Below are positions 6,479 through 49,009 of a stretch of 64,000 bases of DNA, one piece after another. The notes beneath the pieces are model-generated. The model saw only the letters and a program-made list of their open reading frames with translations. It was not told where the DNA came from and did no database searches. How positions within the stretch are numbered: position 1 is the first letter of the stretch; each line of letters starts with the position of its first letter. The DNA comes from Candidatus Kapaibacterium sp. (GTDB lineage Bacteria > Bacteroidota > Ignavibacteria > Kapaibacteriales > UBA2268). The stretch lies in NCBI GenBank assembly GCA_038206725.1, contig JBBRAO010000004.1, positions 39,580 through 103,579 on the forward strand, read 5' to 3'. The position numbers and the translations under genes are program-made.

Positions 6479-7711
6479 ATGAAAAAAATAATACTAATAT
6501 CTTTATTGCTTTTAATTTGTTTCCAGCCTTGTTTTTCACGTAGTAAAATAAAGCTGGGGATAGATGTATTGTTGGATGAAAATTATAAACCTATTGAAAA
6601 CAAGAACATCGCCTTGCTATCGAATTTTGCCGGAAGATCGTCCGATGGAATTCTAACAGCTGAATTATTATCAAAGGCAAAAAACTTTAAATTAAAGATG
6701 ATTCTTTCACCGGAACACGGCTTTTTTACTACTATGCCCGCCGGTCAAAGTATTTCTGATACAATTATTGATGGAATTCCGATAGTTTCGCTTTATGGAA
6801 AAAATCGTGAACCTAACAAAGATTTGCTAAATAATATTGATGTTATTGTTGTTGATATTCAAGATGTCGGAGTGCGATCTTATACATATATCAGCACATT
6901 GTTCAATACTATGAAATTTGCTGCTGAAAACGATATTAAAGTTATAGTTTTGGATAGACCTAACCCCTTAAATGGTATTATTGTAGATGGGAATGTAATT
7001 GAACCGGAATGGTTTTCATTTGTTGGGATTATCCCAATTTCCTATATTCACGGGTGTACTATTGGTGAATTAGCATTAATGATTAATAGCGAAAATTGGC
7101 TTTCGAAAGAAAAAATCTTGAAATGCGATTTGGAAATTATTAGGATGGTAGGTTGGAAGAGAGAAATGGCTTGGGAAGACACCGGATTGGATTGGTATCC
7201 AACATCCCCACATATTCCTACAGTCAATGCCGCACGAGGTATGGCAGTATTTGGAGCATTTGGAGAATTAGGCATTACGAGCTTGGGAATTGGAACCACA
7301 ACTCCATTTCAGATAATTGGTCATAAAACTTTCGATTTTTTTTATGATAATCACATTTCCGATACCTTCGAATATTGTTCTTTTTCGACTAGCCCTATGA
7401 TATTCAGACCGTTTTATGGTAAATATAAAGATGAAAATATAAACGGTCTATTTTGTAATTTCCATTTTGATGTTGACTGTAAACCCTACCAAGATGGTAT
7501 AAATTTCTTTTTGAATCTACGAAACATATATCCAGATCTTTTTAATGAGTTTCTTTACAGACCTGAACAAATCAAGATGTTCAAAAAGGTTACAGGAACC
7601 GATAGAATTTTTAAAATTGTTTTTAATAATTCTGAAAATAATATTACCGAAAGTATAACAAACGATTTATACAAGTTCATAATTTTAAGAAATAACTACT
7701 TATTGTATTAA
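6479..7711 (+). CDS. DUF1343 family protein, exo-beta-N-acetylmuramidase NamZ-like
   Basis: Signal peptide MKKIILISLLLLICFQPCFS (ATG 6479; the ORF table start 6416 is an upstream extension). KLGIDVLLDE...IALLSNFAG N-terminal pattern as I recall for DUF1343/NamZ (YbbC) proteins. Confidence 0.5.
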   Translation: MKKIILISLLLLICFQPCFSRSKIKLGIDVLLDENYKPIENKNIALLSNFAGRSSDGILTAELLSKAKNFKLKMILSPEHGFFTTMPAGQSISDTIIDGIPIVSLYGKNREPNKDLLNNIDVIVVDIQDVGVRSYTYISTLFNTMKFAAENDIKVIVLDRPNPLNGIIVDGNVIEPEWFSFVGIIPISYIHGCTIGELALMINSENWLSKEKILKCDLEIIRMVGWKREMAWEDTGLDWYPTSPHIPTVNAARGMAVFGAFGELGITSLGIGTTTPFQIIGHKTFDFFYDNHISDTFEYCSFSTSPMIFRPFYGKYKDENINGLFCNFHFDVDCKPYQDGINFFLNLRNIYPDLFNEFLYRPEQIKMFKKVTGTDRIFKIVFNNSENNITESITNDLYKFIILRNNYLLY

Positions 7712-42612: not shown

Positions 42613-42686
42613 GCCGGAGTAGCTCAGCTGGTTAGAGCACTGGAATCATAATCCAGGTGTCGGGGGTTCAAATCCCTCCTCCGGTA
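42613..42686 (+). tRNA. tRNA with CAT anticodon (Met elongator or Ile2/lysidine type); CCA not encoded
   Basis: Cloverleaf readable by eye. Acceptor GCCGGAG/CTCCGGT (G1-U72 wobble). U8A9. D-arm GCTC-AGCTGGTTA-GAGC. Anticodon stem CTGGA/TCCAG with loop ATCATAA. Variable GTGTC. T-arm GGGGG-TTCAAAT-CCCTC. Confidence 0.8.
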
Positions 42687-42704
42687 CACCAAAAAAAATA
42701 TCCC

Positions 42705-42749: not shown

Positions 42750-42815
42750 TTACTATTAATTTTGAAATGAATGCATTATTTTGTAATTTCGCATATCATT
42801 TATTGAGAAGATGTA
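42750..42815 (+). repeat. conserved intergenic element copy A (about 65 bp; hairpin TCATTTAT-N13-GTAAATGA)
   Basis: ATTTTGAAATGAATGCATTATTTTGTAATTTCGCATATCATTTATTGAGAAGATGTAGGTAAATGA. Near-identical to copy B, related to copy C. Confidence 0.6.
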
Positions 42816-43013
42816 GGTAAATGAGTGCGTGAGTTATGGTCTTTATTAGAAAAAGACGCTAATCGCAGTAAATAACATAGAAAAAAGGTAATTAGAGCAA
42901 CTGATAAAATTATCAATATCGTTTGTTTTTGCTTTCGACCAAAGCGATTTGGAAACAGGATAAATTATGCACACTGATTGTGGGATTTCTAACTTAAAAA
43001 TATAAGAACAATT

Positions 43014-43484
43014 ATGGCTTTTTATCAATTAATTAAAACACAAAAATTACCTGTCTCCATCAACGAGATATGGGATTTTATTTCAGCTCCAGGCAATTTG
43101 AAGGAAATAACACCAAAGCAAATGGGCTTTATTGTAACAAGCAATACTGGTGAAGGCAAAATGTATCCGGGTATGATCATTACTTACAAGGTGAGTCCCT
43201 TGTTTGGTTTAAAACTAAATTGGATGACAGAAATTACTCACGTAAAAGACCTAGAATATTTTGTTGATGAGCAAAGGTTGGGTCCTTACACTATGTGGCA
43301 TCATCAGCATAAAATTGAAAGTATTGAAGGCGGTGTGTTAATGACTGATATTGTTACCTACCAACCACCATTTGGAGTATTGGGTGCAATTGCTAATTCA
43401 CTATTAATTAGAAATAGACTTCAACAAATATTCGATTTCCGAACAGTTGCTTTAGAGAAAAGATTTGGGAAATTTCATTTATGA
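43014..43484 (+). CDS. SRPBCC (START/Bet v1-like, polyketide-cyclase-type) family protein
   Basis: 156 aa. Family commonly paired with a DUF2867-containing NAD(P)-binding protein, as here. No catalytic motif visible. Confidence 0.45.
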   Translation: MAFYQLIKTQKLPVSINEIWDFISAPGNLKEITPKQMGFIVTSNTGEGKMYPGMIITYKVSPLFGLKLNWMTEITHVKDLEYFVDEQRLGPYTMWHHQHKIESIEGGVLMTDIVTYQPPFGVLGAIANSLLIRNRLQQIFDFRTVALEKRFGKFHL

Positions 43485-44911
43485 AAATACTACTAACCGG
43501 TGTAACCGGATATATTGCACAAAGATTATTGCCTATTTTACTGGAAAATGGGCATACGGTTATTTGCTGTGTAAGAGATAAAAATAGGTTTAATAGCAAA
43601 AAATATTTGACTGCAAATCTAACCCTTATAGAGACAGATTTCCTAAAAAAGGAAAGTTTACAGCATATTCCAAATGATATTGACGTAGCATTTTACCTCA
43701 TACATTCTATGTCAACGCAAAGCGGTGACTTTGAAAATATGGAAGAAATATGTGCAACTAATTTTAAAAATCGCATTGCAGAAACAAACGCTAAACAAGT
43801 TATTTACCTTAGCGGTATCAGCAACGCTGACCATTTATCTAAACATTTATCATCACGAAAAAATGTAGAAACTGTTTTGTCAGGTTCCTCTTTTGCACTC
43901 ACCACTTTAAAAGCCGGAATAATAGTAGGTTCGGGAAGTGCTTCATTTGAAATCATTCGCGATTTAGTAGAAAAATTACCTTTTATGATTGCACCTCGTT
44001 GGCTAAAAACAAAATGTCAGCCCATCGCTATTAGTGATGTGGTAGATTTTTTAATTGGCGTAATTGGTAAAACAGAAACATACAATCAAAGTTACGATAT
44101 TGGTGGTCCGGATATATTAAACTATAAGGAAATGCTTTTGCGATTTGCAAAAATACGGGGCTTGAAGAGGCGAATCCTTATTGTACCGGTTATGACACCC
44201 AAAATATCGTCCTATTGGCTATATTTTGTTACTGCTACGTCATTTGCTCTTGCTAAAAATTTGGTAAACAGTATGAAAATCGAAGTGATTTGCAAACCCA
44301 ATGATTTAGCTACACTGCTTGGCATTGAATGTTTAGATTATGACACATCTATAAAAATGGCTTTTGACAAGATAGAACAAAATCAAGTACTTTCAAGTTG
44401 GAAAGATGCACAAACAAGTAATATATTAAGCGAAGGTATTGCCAAATATATTGAAGTGCCTGTTAACGGTTGTTTTAAAGACAGTCGTTCCATTAAACTT
44501 AAAGACAGTACTGCTTCCGTTGAAAAAATATGGGCTATCGGTGGAAAAACTGGCTGGTATTATGGGAACTGGCTTTGGGAAACCCGAGGCATTATAGATC
44601 AGGTTTTGGGAGGTGTTGGTATGCGGAGAGGCCGAAAAAGTGAAACAGAAATAGTTTCAGGTGACGCCCTCGATTTTTGGCGCGTGCTTTTAGCAGATAA
44701 ACAAGAAAAACGCCTGCTACTATATGCCGAAATGAAACTACCCGGCGAAGCTTGGCTGGAATTTAAAATTGACAAAAATGATATCCTATCGCAAACAGCA
44801 ACCTTCAGACCGCTGGGTTTGTTAGGTAGATTGTATTGGTATTCTGTACTTCCGTTACACGGATTAATTTTTAAAGGAATGATACATAAAATAGCTGAAA
44901 CAAAATCATAG
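43481..44911 (+). CDS. NAD(P)-binding Rossmann (NmrA/SDR-like) protein with C-terminal DUF2867-like domain
   Basis: MKILLTGVTGYIAQRLLPILLENGHTV Rossmann motif. 476 aa. 4-nt overlap with the upstream gene. Confidence 0.5.
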   Translation: MKILLTGVTGYIAQRLLPILLENGHTVICCVRDKNRFNSKKYLTANLTLIETDFLKKESLQHIPNDIDVAFYLIHSMSTQSGDFENMEEICATNFKNRIAETNAKQVIYLSGISNADHLSKHLSSRKNVETVLSGSSFALTTLKAGIIVGSGSASFEIIRDLVEKLPFMIAPRWLKTKCQPIAISDVVDFLIGVIGKTETYNQSYDIGGPDILNYKEMLLRFAKIRGLKRRILIVPVMTPKISSYWLYFVTATSFALAKNLVNSMKIEVICKPNDLATLLGIECLDYDTSIKMAFDKIEQNQVLSSWKDAQTSNILSEGIAKYIEVPVNGCFKDSRSIKLKDSTASVEKIWAIGGKTGWYYGNWLWETRGIIDQVLGGVGMRRGRKSETEIVSGDALDFWRVLLADKQEKRLLLYAEMKLPGEAWLEFKIDKNDILSQTATFRPLGLLGRLYWYSVLPLHGLIFKGMIHKIAETKS

Positions 44912-45039
44912 TGCTATCAAACGTCCGGCAATATTTCAGTTCTGCGATTGAATCGGCATTTGTACTTGATTTGCATTTCTTGTACTGAAACAAAACGATT
45001 CTCTTATTTTTGCCGGTTAAAATAAATAGTATCGAATAT

Positions 45040-45105
45040 ATTTTGAAAATCATTCTTTATTTTGTAATTTCGCATATAATTTATTGAGAAGATGTAGATA
45101 AATGA
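45040..45105 (+). repeat. conserved intergenic element copy B
   Basis: ATTTTGAAAATCATTCTTTATTTTGTAATTTCGCATATAATTTATTGAGAAGATGTAGATAAATGA. About 80 nt upstream of the 45187 ORF. Confidence 0.6.
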
Positions 45106-45186
45106 AGAATGGCGACGGAAATTTAAAGAGCATATAAAGAATGGAAACTGAAAAGAAAGACGTAATTCTATTAAACAATTTATTCA

Positions 45187-46314
45187 ATGGAGAATATGTC
45201 AAGGAAAAAATTGGTGGAGAAATTATTAATATGTATCAATCTGACAATGATAATTATTATATTTATAAGGTCTGTTGGGAACGGTGTTGTAAAAATAATA
45301 GGAAAAGCTGAAATTGAAGAACAAATCTGCCTTAATGCAATAAAAAAAGTAGGTGAAGGCATTGATGATAACCAAAAAAAATATATTGATGACAACAATA
45401 TAACCTACGGAAATTGCAAAGTTTATGAATTAGGTTCTTGGTCAAATTATTTTGTAACATTCAAGGCTAAAAGAATATATAAAGCTAAAGAAAATATATA
45501 TTTAGCAACAACAGAAAATAAAATAATTCCACAAAATATATATATTTTAAAAGAAACCACGCGTATAAATAATCAGTCTCAAAAACTATACATAGAGGAA
45601 GGTAGCGATAGTTATCGAACATTATTGAAAGTTGTTGAGACTAATTATCTTTGGGAAACAAATACAATAAGCAAAGTAGATACTTCGAAAAAAGATAATA
45701 TTTATAAAAGTTTTCTATCAATAATTAAGAAGGAATATGATGAATTAGTTAATTCAAATTTATTAGCACATTTCCTTGAAACTGACAAAGAATTTTGGTC
45801 TGATTTCGCTACAAAAGTATTAAAAATAGATGATGAATGTGTGATTAATGGCACTCCAAAGATAACTAGAGAATCAATTAGCAACATTGATTTATTCATT
45901 GAAGTTAAACAATTCGTAATCGTAATTGAGAACAAAATAAAATCAGGGATAAATGGCAAAGGAGAAAACGGTTATTCTCAGTTAGAAAAATATATAGATG
46001 AAACGAAAAAGCATCCATTTCTTGAAAACTTAGAGAGAACATTCAAATTTTATCTATTGAGGCCAAATTATAATAATGAAGATTATAAAGAATTCGATAA
46101 AAACGAAGAGTATAAAGTAATTAAATATTCAGAAATTCACGAGATTATTAAAGATCGCGAATCTGAATCAGATTTTTATTTTAATGAATTTAAGAGAGTT
46201 GTAAAAAAACATTCAGCTGAATACGATAACGAATTATTTGAAATAATGGATAAAAGATTTATTGAACAAATAAAAGCAAAAAATAATATAACAATAAACA
46301 AGTGCAACACCTAA
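45187..46314 (+). CDS. hypothetical protein with PD-(D/E)XK nuclease-like core
   Basis: 375 aa, Lys/Asn/Glu-rich. ISNIDLFIEVKQFVIVIENKIKSG...YSQLEKY fits the D...(D/E)xK pattern of restriction-endonuclease-fold proteins. No ATPase motif. N-terminal start uncertain. Confidence 0.35.
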   Translation: MENMSRKKLVEKLLICINLTMIIIIFIRSVGNGVVKIIGKAEIEEQICLNAIKKVGEGIDDNQKKYIDDNNITYGNCKVYELGSWSNYFVTFKAKRIYKAKENIYLATTENKIIPQNIYILKETTRINNQSQKLYIEEGSDSYRTLLKVVETNYLWETNTISKVDTSKKDNIYKSFLSIIKKEYDELVNSNLLAHFLETDKEFWSDFATKVLKIDDECVINGTPKITRESISNIDLFIEVKQFVIVIENKIKSGINGKGENGYSQLEKYIDETKKHPFLENLERTFKFYLLRPNYNNEDYKEFDKNEEYKVIKYSEIHEIIKDRESESDFYFNEFKRVVKKHSAEYDNELFEIMDKRFIEQIKAKNNITINKCNT

Positions 46315-46433
46315 CATCGTGTGAAAAATATTGGGGCTTAGGTGCGTTATTAAAGCCTTCTGCCCCACTTCAACTCTTCTTGTAATCAAAGAAGGTGATT
46401 TAGACAGAGAAAGCAATATGCAAAAATTGCATA

Positions 46434-46667
46434 ATGCACGCACCGCTAACAACGTCTTATAAGCAATCAGAGTTTCAGTATTTTACGAGAATTTTAGCTC
46501 GAAGCAAAATAATAGACCCAGGATTTAGTTTAACAGATGAAGAATATGAAGCTATAAGTAAGCATTTGGCTAATATTTATGAAACTGGCGAATTACAGCG
46601 GCAAACAACTATTTCCATTTTGGAAACAGTTCAGCAGGAAGGAAACCGCTACCCCAAAATCTTGTAA
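46434..46667 (+). CDS. hypothetical small protein (77 aa)
   Basis: ORF only. Lies in a locally GC-richer segment. No motif recognised. Confidence 0.2.
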   Translation: MHAPLTTSYKQSEFQYFTRILARSKIIDPGFSLTDEEYEAISKHLANIYETGELQRQTTISILETVQQEGNRYPKIL

Positions 46668-46714
46668 ACAACATTTATGAACAGAAATCTAAAGAACTAA
46701 CATAAAAAAGAAAT

Positions 46715-47281
46715 ATGGCAAAACAGAAACTTGAAACCGTGAGAGAACTCATTTACTACTCTTATGCAAACTTAGCAATGGCTCATACCGCAGTTGTTAA
46801 GAAACAAGAAAAATATGGACCTTTTAATTTTATGATTAGATCCAAGCTATTCAAGGGTCTTAAAGAAGGAACAATGAATATGCGAACAATTTTTGATGAT
46901 GAAAAAATCAAACTACAAACCGGACAAATATGTAACTACTGTGGTGCGGCGGACAAATTGGCATTAGACCATATATTCCCCCAAAAATATGGTGGATTAG
47001 ATAACGCGGAAAATTTGATTTTTGCTTGTAGAACTTGCAACAGCTCCAAAGGAAAGAAGGACTTAATGGAATGGATGAACTATCGTGGACATTTTTTGCC
47101 ATTAATGATAATAAGACGGTATTTAAAACTAACTTATAACTACTGCAATGACAATGGACTGCTCGATATGAAAATAGAAGAACTAAAAAAAATGGAGCTC
47201 CCATTTAAAATTGAGCTAATACCGACGAGTTACCCAAATCCAAACGAACTGACATTAACAATAAAGGAAAGGCAAAGCTAA
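46715..47281 (+). CDS. HNH endonuclease family protein
   Basis: CNYCGAADKLALDHIFPQKYGGLDNAENLIFACRTCNSSKG: HNH motif with Cys-pairs (CxxC...CxxC) and catalytic His. Confidence 0.7.
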   Translation: MAKQKLETVRELIYYSYANLAMAHTAVVKKQEKYGPFNFMIRSKLFKGLKEGTMNMRTIFDDEKIKLQTGQICNYCGAADKLALDHIFPQKYGGLDNAENLIFACRTCNSSKGKKDLMEWMNYRGHFLPLMIIRRYLKLTYNYCNDNGLLDMKIEELKKMELPFKIELIPTSYPNPNELTLTIKERQS

Positions 47282-47424
47282 TATAAAAAGTTTTTGCAAC
47301 TGGGCAGGCGTGTACTCCCACCCCACCCCTTAATAACCCATATAACCGTTTAAAAAGTTGTTATTTTCCATTTTATGATTAATTTTGTACTAATTAAATT
47401 TATAAAAATAATAGATTAAATTTT

Positions 47425-47994
47425 ATGTTCGGATTGGTTAGAAATATTGATAAAAAAAGCCTCGAAAACGCCTACCGCCTATTTGACTCGGGCGATATAG
47501 ACAGTATCGAAATTGGCACTACCAAAGGTTTATTGCAAATACACAAATATCTCTTCGATGGTCTTTATGCTTTTGCAGGGCAAATACGCACAAAGAACAT
47601 AGCCAAGGGTGGTTTTAGGTTTGCAAACGCCTTGTATTTAAAGGAAGTTTTGGAAAAAGTGGGGCTAATGCCTGAAAACACTTTTGAAGAAATAATTGCC
47701 AAATATGTGGAAATGAATATAGCCCATCCTTTTTTGGAAGGTAATGGCAGAACGATGCGTATTTGGCTCGATATGATAATGAAAAAGAGATTAAGCAAAT
47801 TAGTGAACTGGCAGTTTGCGGATAAAACACCTTACCTGCAGGCGATGGAACGCAGTCCTATTAACGATTTGGAATTACGCACCTTGCTCGATGCTAATTT
47901 AACAGACGACATCAACAACCGAGAAATTATATTTAAAGGCATAGAGCAATCCTATTATTATGAAGGATACGAAAAAGGTAATGATGACGAATAA
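47425..47994 (+). CDS. Fic/DOC family protein (AMPylation-type)
   Basis: Canonical Fic motif [12 protein letters not shown] (HPFx[DE]GNGR) in a 189-aa protein. Confidence 0.75.
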
Positions 47995-48011
47995 GAGGAA
48001 TAATAATATCA

Positions 48012-48908
48012 ATGATTTTGTCTAAAAATTTTAGTCCGCCTGGTTTTGTATCGGAGTTATTGTATAAATCTCTGAAAGCAATCAACTTCTCAGAAAAAGT
48101 TTTCACCAAAATGCTGACCAAACCCGACAGAGGCACAAATCAGCTGGCGGTAAACAAAATAAATAAGAAGTTATCGCTTGTCGAATCTTATATAGACGGA
48201 TTCAGAATAATCACCGTAAGTGGCAAAACATCCTCTAATAAACACATAATTTTTTTGCACGGTGGTGCTTATTTTGCTGAACCGGTAAAAGGTCACAGAC
48301 AATTGGTAGAGCGTTTGGCATTGTCGGGCTTTGTTGTCAGTTTTATCAACTACCCGCTGGCGCCCGAAAACAATGCTGAAATCACTATTGGTTTGGTTGA
48401 AAAGGCATTTAATGAAATTGCGACCCAATATTCCGGTGATGAATTCTTTCTTTTTGGCGATTCTGCCGGAGGTGGGATTGCTCTCTCACTATTGCAGATT
48501 TTGAGAGATAATAACCATCCAAAAATCCCGACAAAAACTGTTCTTGTTTCGCCGTGGCTTGACATATCAATGTCAAATACTGATATTTCGGACTACATCA
48601 ACAAAGACGTACTTTTAAGCTGCTGCGGTTTAATTCAGTGCGGTAAAATTTATGCTCAAGATATTGACTTGAAAGACCCAAAAGTTTCACCTATTTATGG
48701 CAAGCTCGACGGACTATCGCAAATAAAAATATTCGTTAGCGATTATGAGCTTTTCTATCCGGATTGTCAACTATTGAAACAGAAACTGGATTTAGCAACC
48801 GGAAGTAGCGCAACATTAACTATAAAGGAAAAAATGATACACGATTGGATAGTTTTACCAATAAAAGAGCGAAAAGAAACAATTGACGAAATTGTTGAAT
48901 TTTTTTAG
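48012..48908 (+). CDS. alpha/beta hydrolase, esterase/lipase (HSL-like)
   Basis: HGGAYF oxyanion motif and GDSAGG nucleophile elbow. Confidence 0.7.
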   Translation: MILSKNFSPPGFVSELLYKSLKAINFSEKVFTKMLTKPDRGTNQLAVNKINKKLSLVESYIDGFRIITVSGKTSSNKHIIFLHGGAYFAEPVKGHRQLVERLALSGFVVSFINYPLAPENNAEITIGLVEKAFNEIATQYSGDEFFLFGDSAGGGIALSLLQILRDNNHPKIPTKTVLVSPWLDISMSNTDISDYINKDVLLSCCGLIQCGKIYAQDIDLKDPKVSPIYGKLDGLSQIKIFVSDYELFYPDCQLLKQKLDLATGSSATLTIKEKMIHDWIVLPIKERKETIDEIVEFF

Positions 48909-48969
48909 GAAAATCATTCTTTAATTGGTAATTTTGTATATCATTTATTGAGAGTACATAAATAAATGA
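48908..48969 (+). repeat. conserved intergenic element copy C (diverged)
   Basis: GGAAAATCATTCTTTAATTGGTAATTTTGTATATCATTTATTGAGAGTACATAAATAAATGA. Hairpin TCATTTAT-N13-ATAAATGA. 40 nt upstream of the 49010 start. Confidence 0.5.
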
Positions 48970-49009
48970 ATTCTAAGTAATTTTTAAAAATAAACATAAA
49001 TATGCCAAT

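Follow-up and report, generated by a model that had tools for sequence, protein, structure and literature searches.

Class III Fic enzymes carry an inhibitory helix with the motif (S/T)xxxE(G/N) in the C-terminus of the same polypeptide (PMC3667792), and the enzyme from Neisseria meningitidis, NmFic, AMPylates GyrB and is controlled by tetramerisation and auto-AMPylation (PMC12894286). Among the phage-defence candidate families of PADLOC, a preprint describes phage resistance conferred on E. coli by one PDC-S05 gene (10.1101/2024.09.26.614923), and a PDC-S04 gene assayed in its native host had no defence activity (PMC12409345). Relatives of these families meet in the window analyzed here, a 64,000-nucleotide (nt) stretch of Candidatus Kapaibacterium sp. 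DNA, where a patch of 3.1 kb (44912-48011) holds a PD-(D/E)XK nuclease gene of family PF14281, a 77-codon open reading frame (ORF), an HNH nuclease gene and a Fic gene. The first-pass annotation of this DNA read the two nucleases and the Fic enzyme as a co-operating trio, a candidate new anti-phage or toxin system. The comparisons reported here make it likely, instead, that the patch is a small, decaying accessory cluster of four unrelated, independently mobile genes of the defence-island type that do not co-operate. The features on which this reading depends are the following.

45141-45311, + strand: 5' fragment of the PF14281 (PDDEXK_4) gene, 56 codons, whose translation METEKKDVILLNNLFNGEYVKEKIGGEIINMYQSDNDNYYIY aligns to residues 2-38 of the homologue P0005.
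45187-46314, + strand: 3' fragment of the PF14281 gene, 375 amino acids (aa), Pfam E=2.4e-12 over residues 176-327.
45262-45266, + strand: deletion junction, a 5-nt TTTAT microhomology that ends the frame-A homology and starts the frame-B homology.
46434-46667, + strand: 77-codon mini-ORF, built around a RhuM relic, with residues 1-32 lacking a homologue.
46551-46649, + strand: RhuM-homologous stretch of 33 codons, 79% identical to an Aeromonas RhuM (343 aa) over residues 52-84 of the latter.
46715-47281, + strand: intact HNH nuclease gene, 188 aa, matching Pfam HNH (E=3e-10) and HNH_5.
47425-47994, + strand: intact Fic AMP-transferase gene of class III, 189 aa, Pfam Fic E=6.5e-13.
47725-47751, + strand: Fic active-site motif HPFLEGNGR, residues 101-109, in agreement with the pattern HxFx(D/E)GNGRxxR.
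47950-47967, + strand: inhibitory-helix motif SYYYEG, residues 176-181 of 189, of the form (S/T)xxxE(G/N).

The first-pass annotation was right about the four ORFs in a row on the + strand (375, 77, 188, and 189 aa), about the PD-(D/E)XK, HNH, and Fic domains, and about the active-site motif of the Fic protein. The four genes are separated by gaps of 119, 47, and 143 nt, and the minus strand contains nested short ORFs only.

Linkage in other genomes does not follow this arrangement. No HNH or Fic homologue accompanies the PD-(D/E)XK gene in 80 loci of its family, 66 of which extend at least 2 kb downstream of it, and no Fic or PD-(D/E)XK homologue is present in any of 85 loci of the HNH gene; the three genes are, therefore, not conserved as a unit. 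Moreover, the PD-(D/E)XK family, which is spread over Saccharibacteria, Alphaproteobacteria, Gastranaerophilales, Treponema, Mycoplasma, and Methanobrevibacter, has no conserved neighbour beyond lineage-specific synteny in its 80 loci. Also, NmFic-type genes occur on 979 plasmids from many phyla, with no HNH or PD-(D/E)XK gene near them in the two contexts inspected. The first-pass annotation had stated that its trio would fall if each gene occurred independently in other genomes, and this is what the comparison reveals. A single new anti-phage or toxin system, composed of the PD-(D/E)XK protein, the mini-ORF product, the HNH protein, and the Fic protein, would explain why four genes lie close together on one strand with no internal terminator-like site and why every component matches a PADLOC candidate family. 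Nonetheless, this is extremely improbable given the absence of conserved linkage in both sets of loci, the disruption of two of the components (the nuclease and the mini-ORF), and the self-contained nature of the Fic enzyme, which is found alone on plasmids.

Some observations do weigh against a decaying patch of independent genes. No + strand terminator-like site was found inside the patch, so that co-transcription is possible. Also, RhuM stands by the HNH gene in 4 of the 85 loci, in three of them with a 4-nt stop/start overlap and in the fourth as a RhuM-Doc fusion 1 kb away, and HNH and RhuM may, for this reason, not be fully independent. In the case of the nuclease, the 3' ORF keeps every invariant catalytic residue, which implies either a recent break or a truncated product that is tolerated. 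Finally, an empty site or an intact version of the patch was sought through the closest homologues (88-89% identity) of the DUF2867 gene next to it and none was retrieved, so that the history of the patch is inferred.

The PF14281 gene is the first of the two disrupted components. Its 375-aa ORF scores 47.6 bits against a gathering score of 22.3 for PF14281, and its residues D235...E248-x-K250, invariant across the family alignment, form an intact D...ExK core. However, the homologues that cover ~90% of this ORF have 388-512 aa, mostly 395-430 aa, and start with MKDIILLNNLFNGEYIKEKVGGEIINMYQSDNDKYYIYVNPYGNIDKKWDDQIKHILFIRSVGNG; they align to 91% of the ORF and leave out its first ~23 residues, and family homology in this frame sets in only at residue 23-25 (FIRSVGNG). 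The N-terminal segment is found in a different frame, in the overlapping 56-codon ORF, where the first 42 codons match family residues 2-38 and the remainder runs out of frame to the stop. The junction between both frames was mapped by frame-by-frame alignment to P0005 and to the family alignment, and ~19 codons (VNPYGNIDKKWDDQIKHIL in P0005) are absent from it. According to the length of the homologues, the lost stretch would be of 57 + 5 = 62 nt with a +1 frame change, and a slippage-type deletion between two TTTAT copies would give exactly the observed junction. A deletion of this kind, of ~62 nt, would have inactivated the nuclease gene. The junction is not an accident of assembly, since contigs from three sequencing runs (SRR17021131, SRR17021130, and SRR19962012) give the same allele, with 99.99-100% identity across it and no gaps. 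The 375-aa ORF had been taken for a complete protein, which does not agree with homologues of ~395-405 aa, with the first 38 residues lying in another frame and with ~19 residues missing.

The part that is cut off is a conserved one. The PF14281 subfamily has an N-terminal β-rich domain of ~170 residues followed by a C-terminal PD-(D/E)XK domain whose D, E-x-K, and Q residues are invariant, and 8 of the 29 invariant family columns fall in the first 43 residues (G13, Y15, G21, E23, N26, Y36, Y38, and G43), being now lost or disconnected. In an AlphaFold model of an intact family member (mean predicted local distance difference test, pLDDT, of 87), this segment comprises strands and helices of the N-terminal domain. 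The continuous frame through this domain that characterizes the ~400-aa subfamily is, then, absent here. These alignments show a gene, originally of ~397 aa by comparison with its relatives, that is broken and has its conserved N-terminus cut off. Because invariant columns lie in the part separated from the rest, it reads as a recent pseudogene.

A gene that still functions, either through translation from an internal ATG (45187, 45196, or 45247), which would give an N-terminally truncated protein, or through two polypeptides that assemble, would be consistent with the 375 open codons of the 3' ORF, with the retention past the break of D235, E248, K250, and the other invariant residues, and with an allele that, being the same in samples of two run series, persists in the population. 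We consider this unlikely, because the homologues that align carry the N-terminal segment, eight invariant columns of a structured domain are lost or disconnected, and ~19 residues are missing from the gene altogether. Some residual activity of the downstream ORF could nonetheless be retained by what we regard as a recent pseudogene.

The fold of the family is in agreement with a nuclease. A Foldseek comparison with the PDB gave weak matches only (best E=0.017), and the best-ranked folds are mostly restriction endonuclease, Hjc, NucS, LmuA, and McrC, which fits a nuclease and assigns no function. PDB sequences searched with a profile of the PD-(D/E)XK family gave nothing meaningful, and the PADLOC candidate PDC-S26 matches the 375-aa ORF weakly (E=2e-7) and in the nuclease core only. 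The guanine-cytosine (GC) content of this gene is 25.8%, compared with 33.3% for the window, whereas the HNH and Fic genes are near the average.

The second disrupted component is the mini-ORF. Its residues 40-72 are the part 79% identical to RhuM, and positions 38-78 of the PADLOC PDC-S05 profiles (up to ~340 positions) match its residues 33-73. In addition, a tblastn search of the mini-ORF against plasmids finds annotated rhuM genes, whereas the full Aeromonas RhuM searched by tblastn against the window matches nothing outside 46551-46649. No Pfam match, PF13310 included, was found for the 77-aa ORF; a complete RhuM matches PDC-S05 with E=3e-140 and PF13310 starts near RhuM residue 75, which is why Pfam misses the relic. 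RhuM proteins are of ~300-350 aa with a Virulence_RhuM domain, and the mini-ORF product has neither. A search of 1.84 billion representative proteins returned no full-length homologue of the 77-aa protein other than itself, and nearly all other matches are confined to residues 33-75. The comparisons therefore show the mini-ORF as a chance reading frame around a fragment of a RhuM gene and not as a conserved small protein; the RhuM gene has been reduced to 33 codons within a fortuitous frame of 77.

Separate from this stretch, residues 10-41 of the mini-ORF (46461-46556) have matches in several stretches to long repeat proteins (six in P0242, of 408 aa, and seven in P0273, of 1795 aa), which are probably a compositional or repeat artefact. 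As for the usual setting of RhuM, it is shown by the Aeromonas media plasmid pMC64A, where a complete rhuM and a different PDDEXK-domain gene lie inside an hsdM-hsdS-hsdR type I restriction-modification operon. A RhuM fragment was found in 1 of the 80 PD-(D/E)XK loci; in the locus L020, from a metagenome-assembled genome of Gastranaerophilaceae, a RhuM match limited to residues 10-137 (7103-7486, minus strand) lies ~500 nt upstream of a PDDEXK_4 gene, a second case of partial RhuM next to this family.

The position of the mini-ORF raises another explanation, namely that it forms a working pair with the HNH gene, the 77-aa protein being a DNA-binding regulator or antidote of the HNH nuclease that resembles the N-terminus of RhuM. 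The frame is open, its stop lies 47 nt 5' of the HNH start, and it has retained the N-terminal motif that is most conserved in RhuM; the short PDC-S05 profiles of PADLOC (82-93 positions) end at the same point as it does, and three loci (L155, L163, and L166) have a full RhuM gene that directly adjoins the HNH gene. However, a similar short ORF is present in none of the 85 HNH loci, where the mini-ORF query matched only within full-length RhuM genes, and most of the short proteins that match vary in length and in match position, as fragments would. Together with the lack of matches beyond residues 33-75 and the unique residues 1-32, this makes a working pair very unlikely. Under the preferred reading of the mini-ORF as a relic, the relic 47 nt 5' of the HNH gene would correspond to a RhuM-HNH pair that has lost ~780 nt of RhuM; RhuM was probably once directly upstream of the HNH gene, as it is in a few other genomes.

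The HNH gene itself is intact. Its product has the motifs C73xxC76, D85-H86, N100, C105xxC108, and N109, with zinc-binding CxxC pairs, and all the columns that are invariant in 24 family members are present in it. A search with the protein related it to 912 database clusters, the best 120 of which are 79-87% identical, have 180-233 aa, and come from Bacteroidota where named. The N-terminal domain was described as unique in the first-pass annotation, which cannot be maintained, since the full-length protein recurs in more than 900 clusters and the alignment to some phage HNH endonucleases begins at residue 5 or 18. At the DNA level, 85 loci are 75-84% similar to the gene, the similarity being confined to 46687-47286: it begins at most 28 nt 5' of the start codon and stops at the stop codon. 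No conserved flank, repeat, or RNA travels with the gene in these loci, and in three long contigs it stands among unrelated housekeeping genes.

The resemblance of this protein to described systems is limited to one domain. Septu PtuB, PADLOC PDC-M01B, IscB, and Cas9 share with it only the HNH domain, at ~residues 47-125 (E ~1e-8 to 1e-11). For IscB, the protein reaches 40.6 bits compared with a cut-off of 175 and has no RuvC domain, and for Cas9d it reaches 42.1 bits compared with a cut-off of 375 and has only 188 aa. Septu (PtuAB) and PDC-M01 need an adjacent ATPase (PtuA or M01A), whereas the neighbours here are the RhuM relic and Fic, and no ATPase was found in the 40-51 kb region of the window. 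On these comparisons, the HNH protein is assigned to its own family of ~190 aa, encoded by a stand-alone gene, and would most likely be a zinc-stabilised ββα-metal DNA nuclease that acts alone or with an adjacent partner. A predicted structure of the protein had a pLDDT of 54, from an alignment without diversity, and was not used.

In the 85 loci, the neighbours of the HNH gene change from locus to locus (L083-L167, for example L135, L166, L144, and L161), and overlaps of 4-8 nt with its start or stop are frequent. Among them are a gene of the endonuclease/exonuclease/phosphatase family (EEP) in five loci, with an 8-nt overlap, a HamC-like DUF3223 gene in five loci, and also DUF6994, DUF2971, and methyltransferases. 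The locus L085, with a 76-aa ORF, an HNH gene, and a RhuM-Doc gene, at first suggested a RhuM gene split by insertion of the HNH gene. This was rejected, since RhuM-Doc is complete there and the 76-aa ORF has no relation to RhuM.

The ~190-aa HNH protein could be a nuclease effector common to the two-gene defence systems of one family, in which case the window would hold a decayed RhuM-HNH pair. Alternatively, the gene could be selfish and free-standing, comparable to a homing endonuclease, and settle next to defence genes. That the protein, whose sequence is unusually constrained, is an undescribed modular element of Bacteroidota defence islands is a tentative proposal and a rather doubtful one. 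Even so, this HNH family with its changing, tightly abutted partners is the only thread worth following from the patch.

The Fic gene, on the other hand, can be assigned closely. Its product scores 292.6 bits against the NmFic-type equivalog NF046029 of NCBIfam (cut-off 230), covering profile positions 2-177 of 177, and matches the NmFic structures 2G03 and 3S6A of the PDB with E=2e-91 and 76.2% identity over 181 aa; the PADLOC family PDC-S04 matches it with E=1e-90. Compared with NmFic (NMB0255 of N. meningitidis; PDB codes: 2G03, 3S6A, and 5CGL), it has the same length, the same HPFLEGNGR, and identical residues in the last 21 aligned positions, which include SxxxEG. Auto-AMPylation of NmFic is reported at two tyrosines which, with a numbering offset of six, would also lie in this identical C-terminal segment. 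The host here is a low-GC bacterium of the Bacteroidota and not Neisseria, and the GyrB target and the control by oligomerisation are assumed by analogy. Based on this similarity, the gene is an orthologue of NmFic and encodes a class III enzyme, predicted to be self-inhibited. By analogy, its own C-terminal helix would hold it inactive, the SxxxE glutamate blocking productive ATP binding, with oligomerisation as an additional restraint. Once released, the enzyme would AMPylate GyrB and provoke growth arrest, as suggested by the 76% identity and the identical motifs.

The first-pass annotation had noted the absence of an obvious antitoxin and had proposed a check for an inhibitory helix. The helix motif is there, and the absence becomes moot, because a Fic protein with its own inhibitory helix does not need an antitoxin gene and is no orphan toxin. 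In an alternative reading, Fic is the toxin of a class I toxin-antitoxin pair and the gene of its antitoxin was missed or lost. This draws on the need of VbhT- and FicT-type Fic proteins for a small antitoxin (PMC3667792), which in class I comes from a separate gene and supplies the inhibitory helix, and on a weak match of the protein to the VbhT model (41 bits). Nonetheless, the VbhT equivalog cut-off is 800 bits, the cut-off of the NmFic model is exceeded, SYYYEG lies within the protein and is identical to that of NmFic, and the 143 nt upstream of the gene contain no + strand ORF of at least 40 aa. A class I pair is, then, scarcely credible, and the self-inhibited class III enzyme is the reading kept here.

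The sequence 5' of the Fic gene has a promoter-like feature. In Bacteroidota, the -7 element has the consensus TAnnTTTG, and a motif of this type, TAATTTTG, is located 38 nt upstream of the Fic ATG, which suggests that the gene has a promoter of its own. Downstream, the Fic stop codon is followed after only 17 nt by the start of an α/β-hydrolase gene (47994-48012), with no terminator-like site between them, and these two genes may be co-transcribed.

The flanks of the patch, assigned by Pfam and database matches, are made up of ordinary, housekeeping-type genes and comprise ETF beta and alpha, a bifunctional-nuclease/UVR protein, tRNA-Met, an SRPBCC-like gene, and an SDR/DUF2867 gene upstream, and the α/β-hydrolase, a DUF347 membrane protein, and a transporter-like protein downstream. 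The remaining features of interest are the tRNA and a short repeated element.

42613-42687: tRNA-Met, 2.5 kb upstream, separated from the patch by two conserved metabolic genes.
42759-42824, 45040-45105, and 48909-48970, + strand: three copies of a ~65-nt element, 84-96% identical in the core.

The tRNA was the only match in an Rfam scan of the window. A tRNA-linked integrative island is recognised by an integrase gene and by direct repeats that come from the 3' end of the tRNA. No integrase was found among the scanned flanking genes, and no repeat of the tRNA-Met 3' end was found in the window. With the tRNA at this distance and behind two metabolic genes, the case once made for a tRNA-proximal island is weak. 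Likewise, a restriction-modification system has a cognate methyltransferase beside the nuclease, and no methyltransferase domain was found among the scanned flanking genes.

The two genes at 43014-44911, SRPBCC-like (156 aa) and SDR/DUF2867 (476 aa), overlap by 4 nt. This pair is kept in three relatives (L168, L169, and L170), with the SDR protein 88-89% identical and with different surrounding genes, and appears to move or to be retained as a unit. The sequence after the pair differs in every relative, so that a comparison before and after the arrival of the patch is not possible.

The copies of the ~65-nt element adjoin the 5' sides of three + strand genes, SRPBCC, the broken PD-(D/E)XK gene, and DUF347, and no further strong copy was found in the window. 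The 66-nt direct repeat formed by the first two copies (42759-42824 and 45040-45105) was considered as the mark of an insertion site and rejected, given the third copy and the location of all three just 5' of + strand genes. The element looks more like a shared promoter or regulatory sequence than an attachment site, and alternatively it could be a small repeat that helps cassettes to recombine.

In comparison with known systems, the locus is annotated as a PDDEXK_4 pseudogene, a RhuM relic, a stand-alone HNH nuclease, and an NmFic-type class III Fic, and nothing in it is categorically new. The earlier view that its proteins could not be assigned was correct in part: it does not hold for Fic (NmFic equivalog and PDC-S04) or for the mini-ORF (PDC-S05, that is, RhuM). 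A false lead is avoided in this way, since the apparent system of two nucleases and Fic would consist of four independent genes, two of them dead. PF14281 nucleases elsewhere have no conserved partner gene and no close solved structure, and the copy in the window differs from them by its frameshifting split. With respect to the RhuM family (PF13310 and PDC-S05), ~90% of the gene is gone here, including the whole PF13310 domain. Finally, the patch differs from defence islands and variable hotspots in its size of only 3.1 kb and in having no complete named system, mobility genes, or recognisable boundaries, whereas it resembles them in its unrelated defence-type genes on one strand, in its pseudogenes, and in the atypical GC content of one gene, all four genes belonging to PADLOC phage-defence candidate families or to families found in defence-island-like settings.

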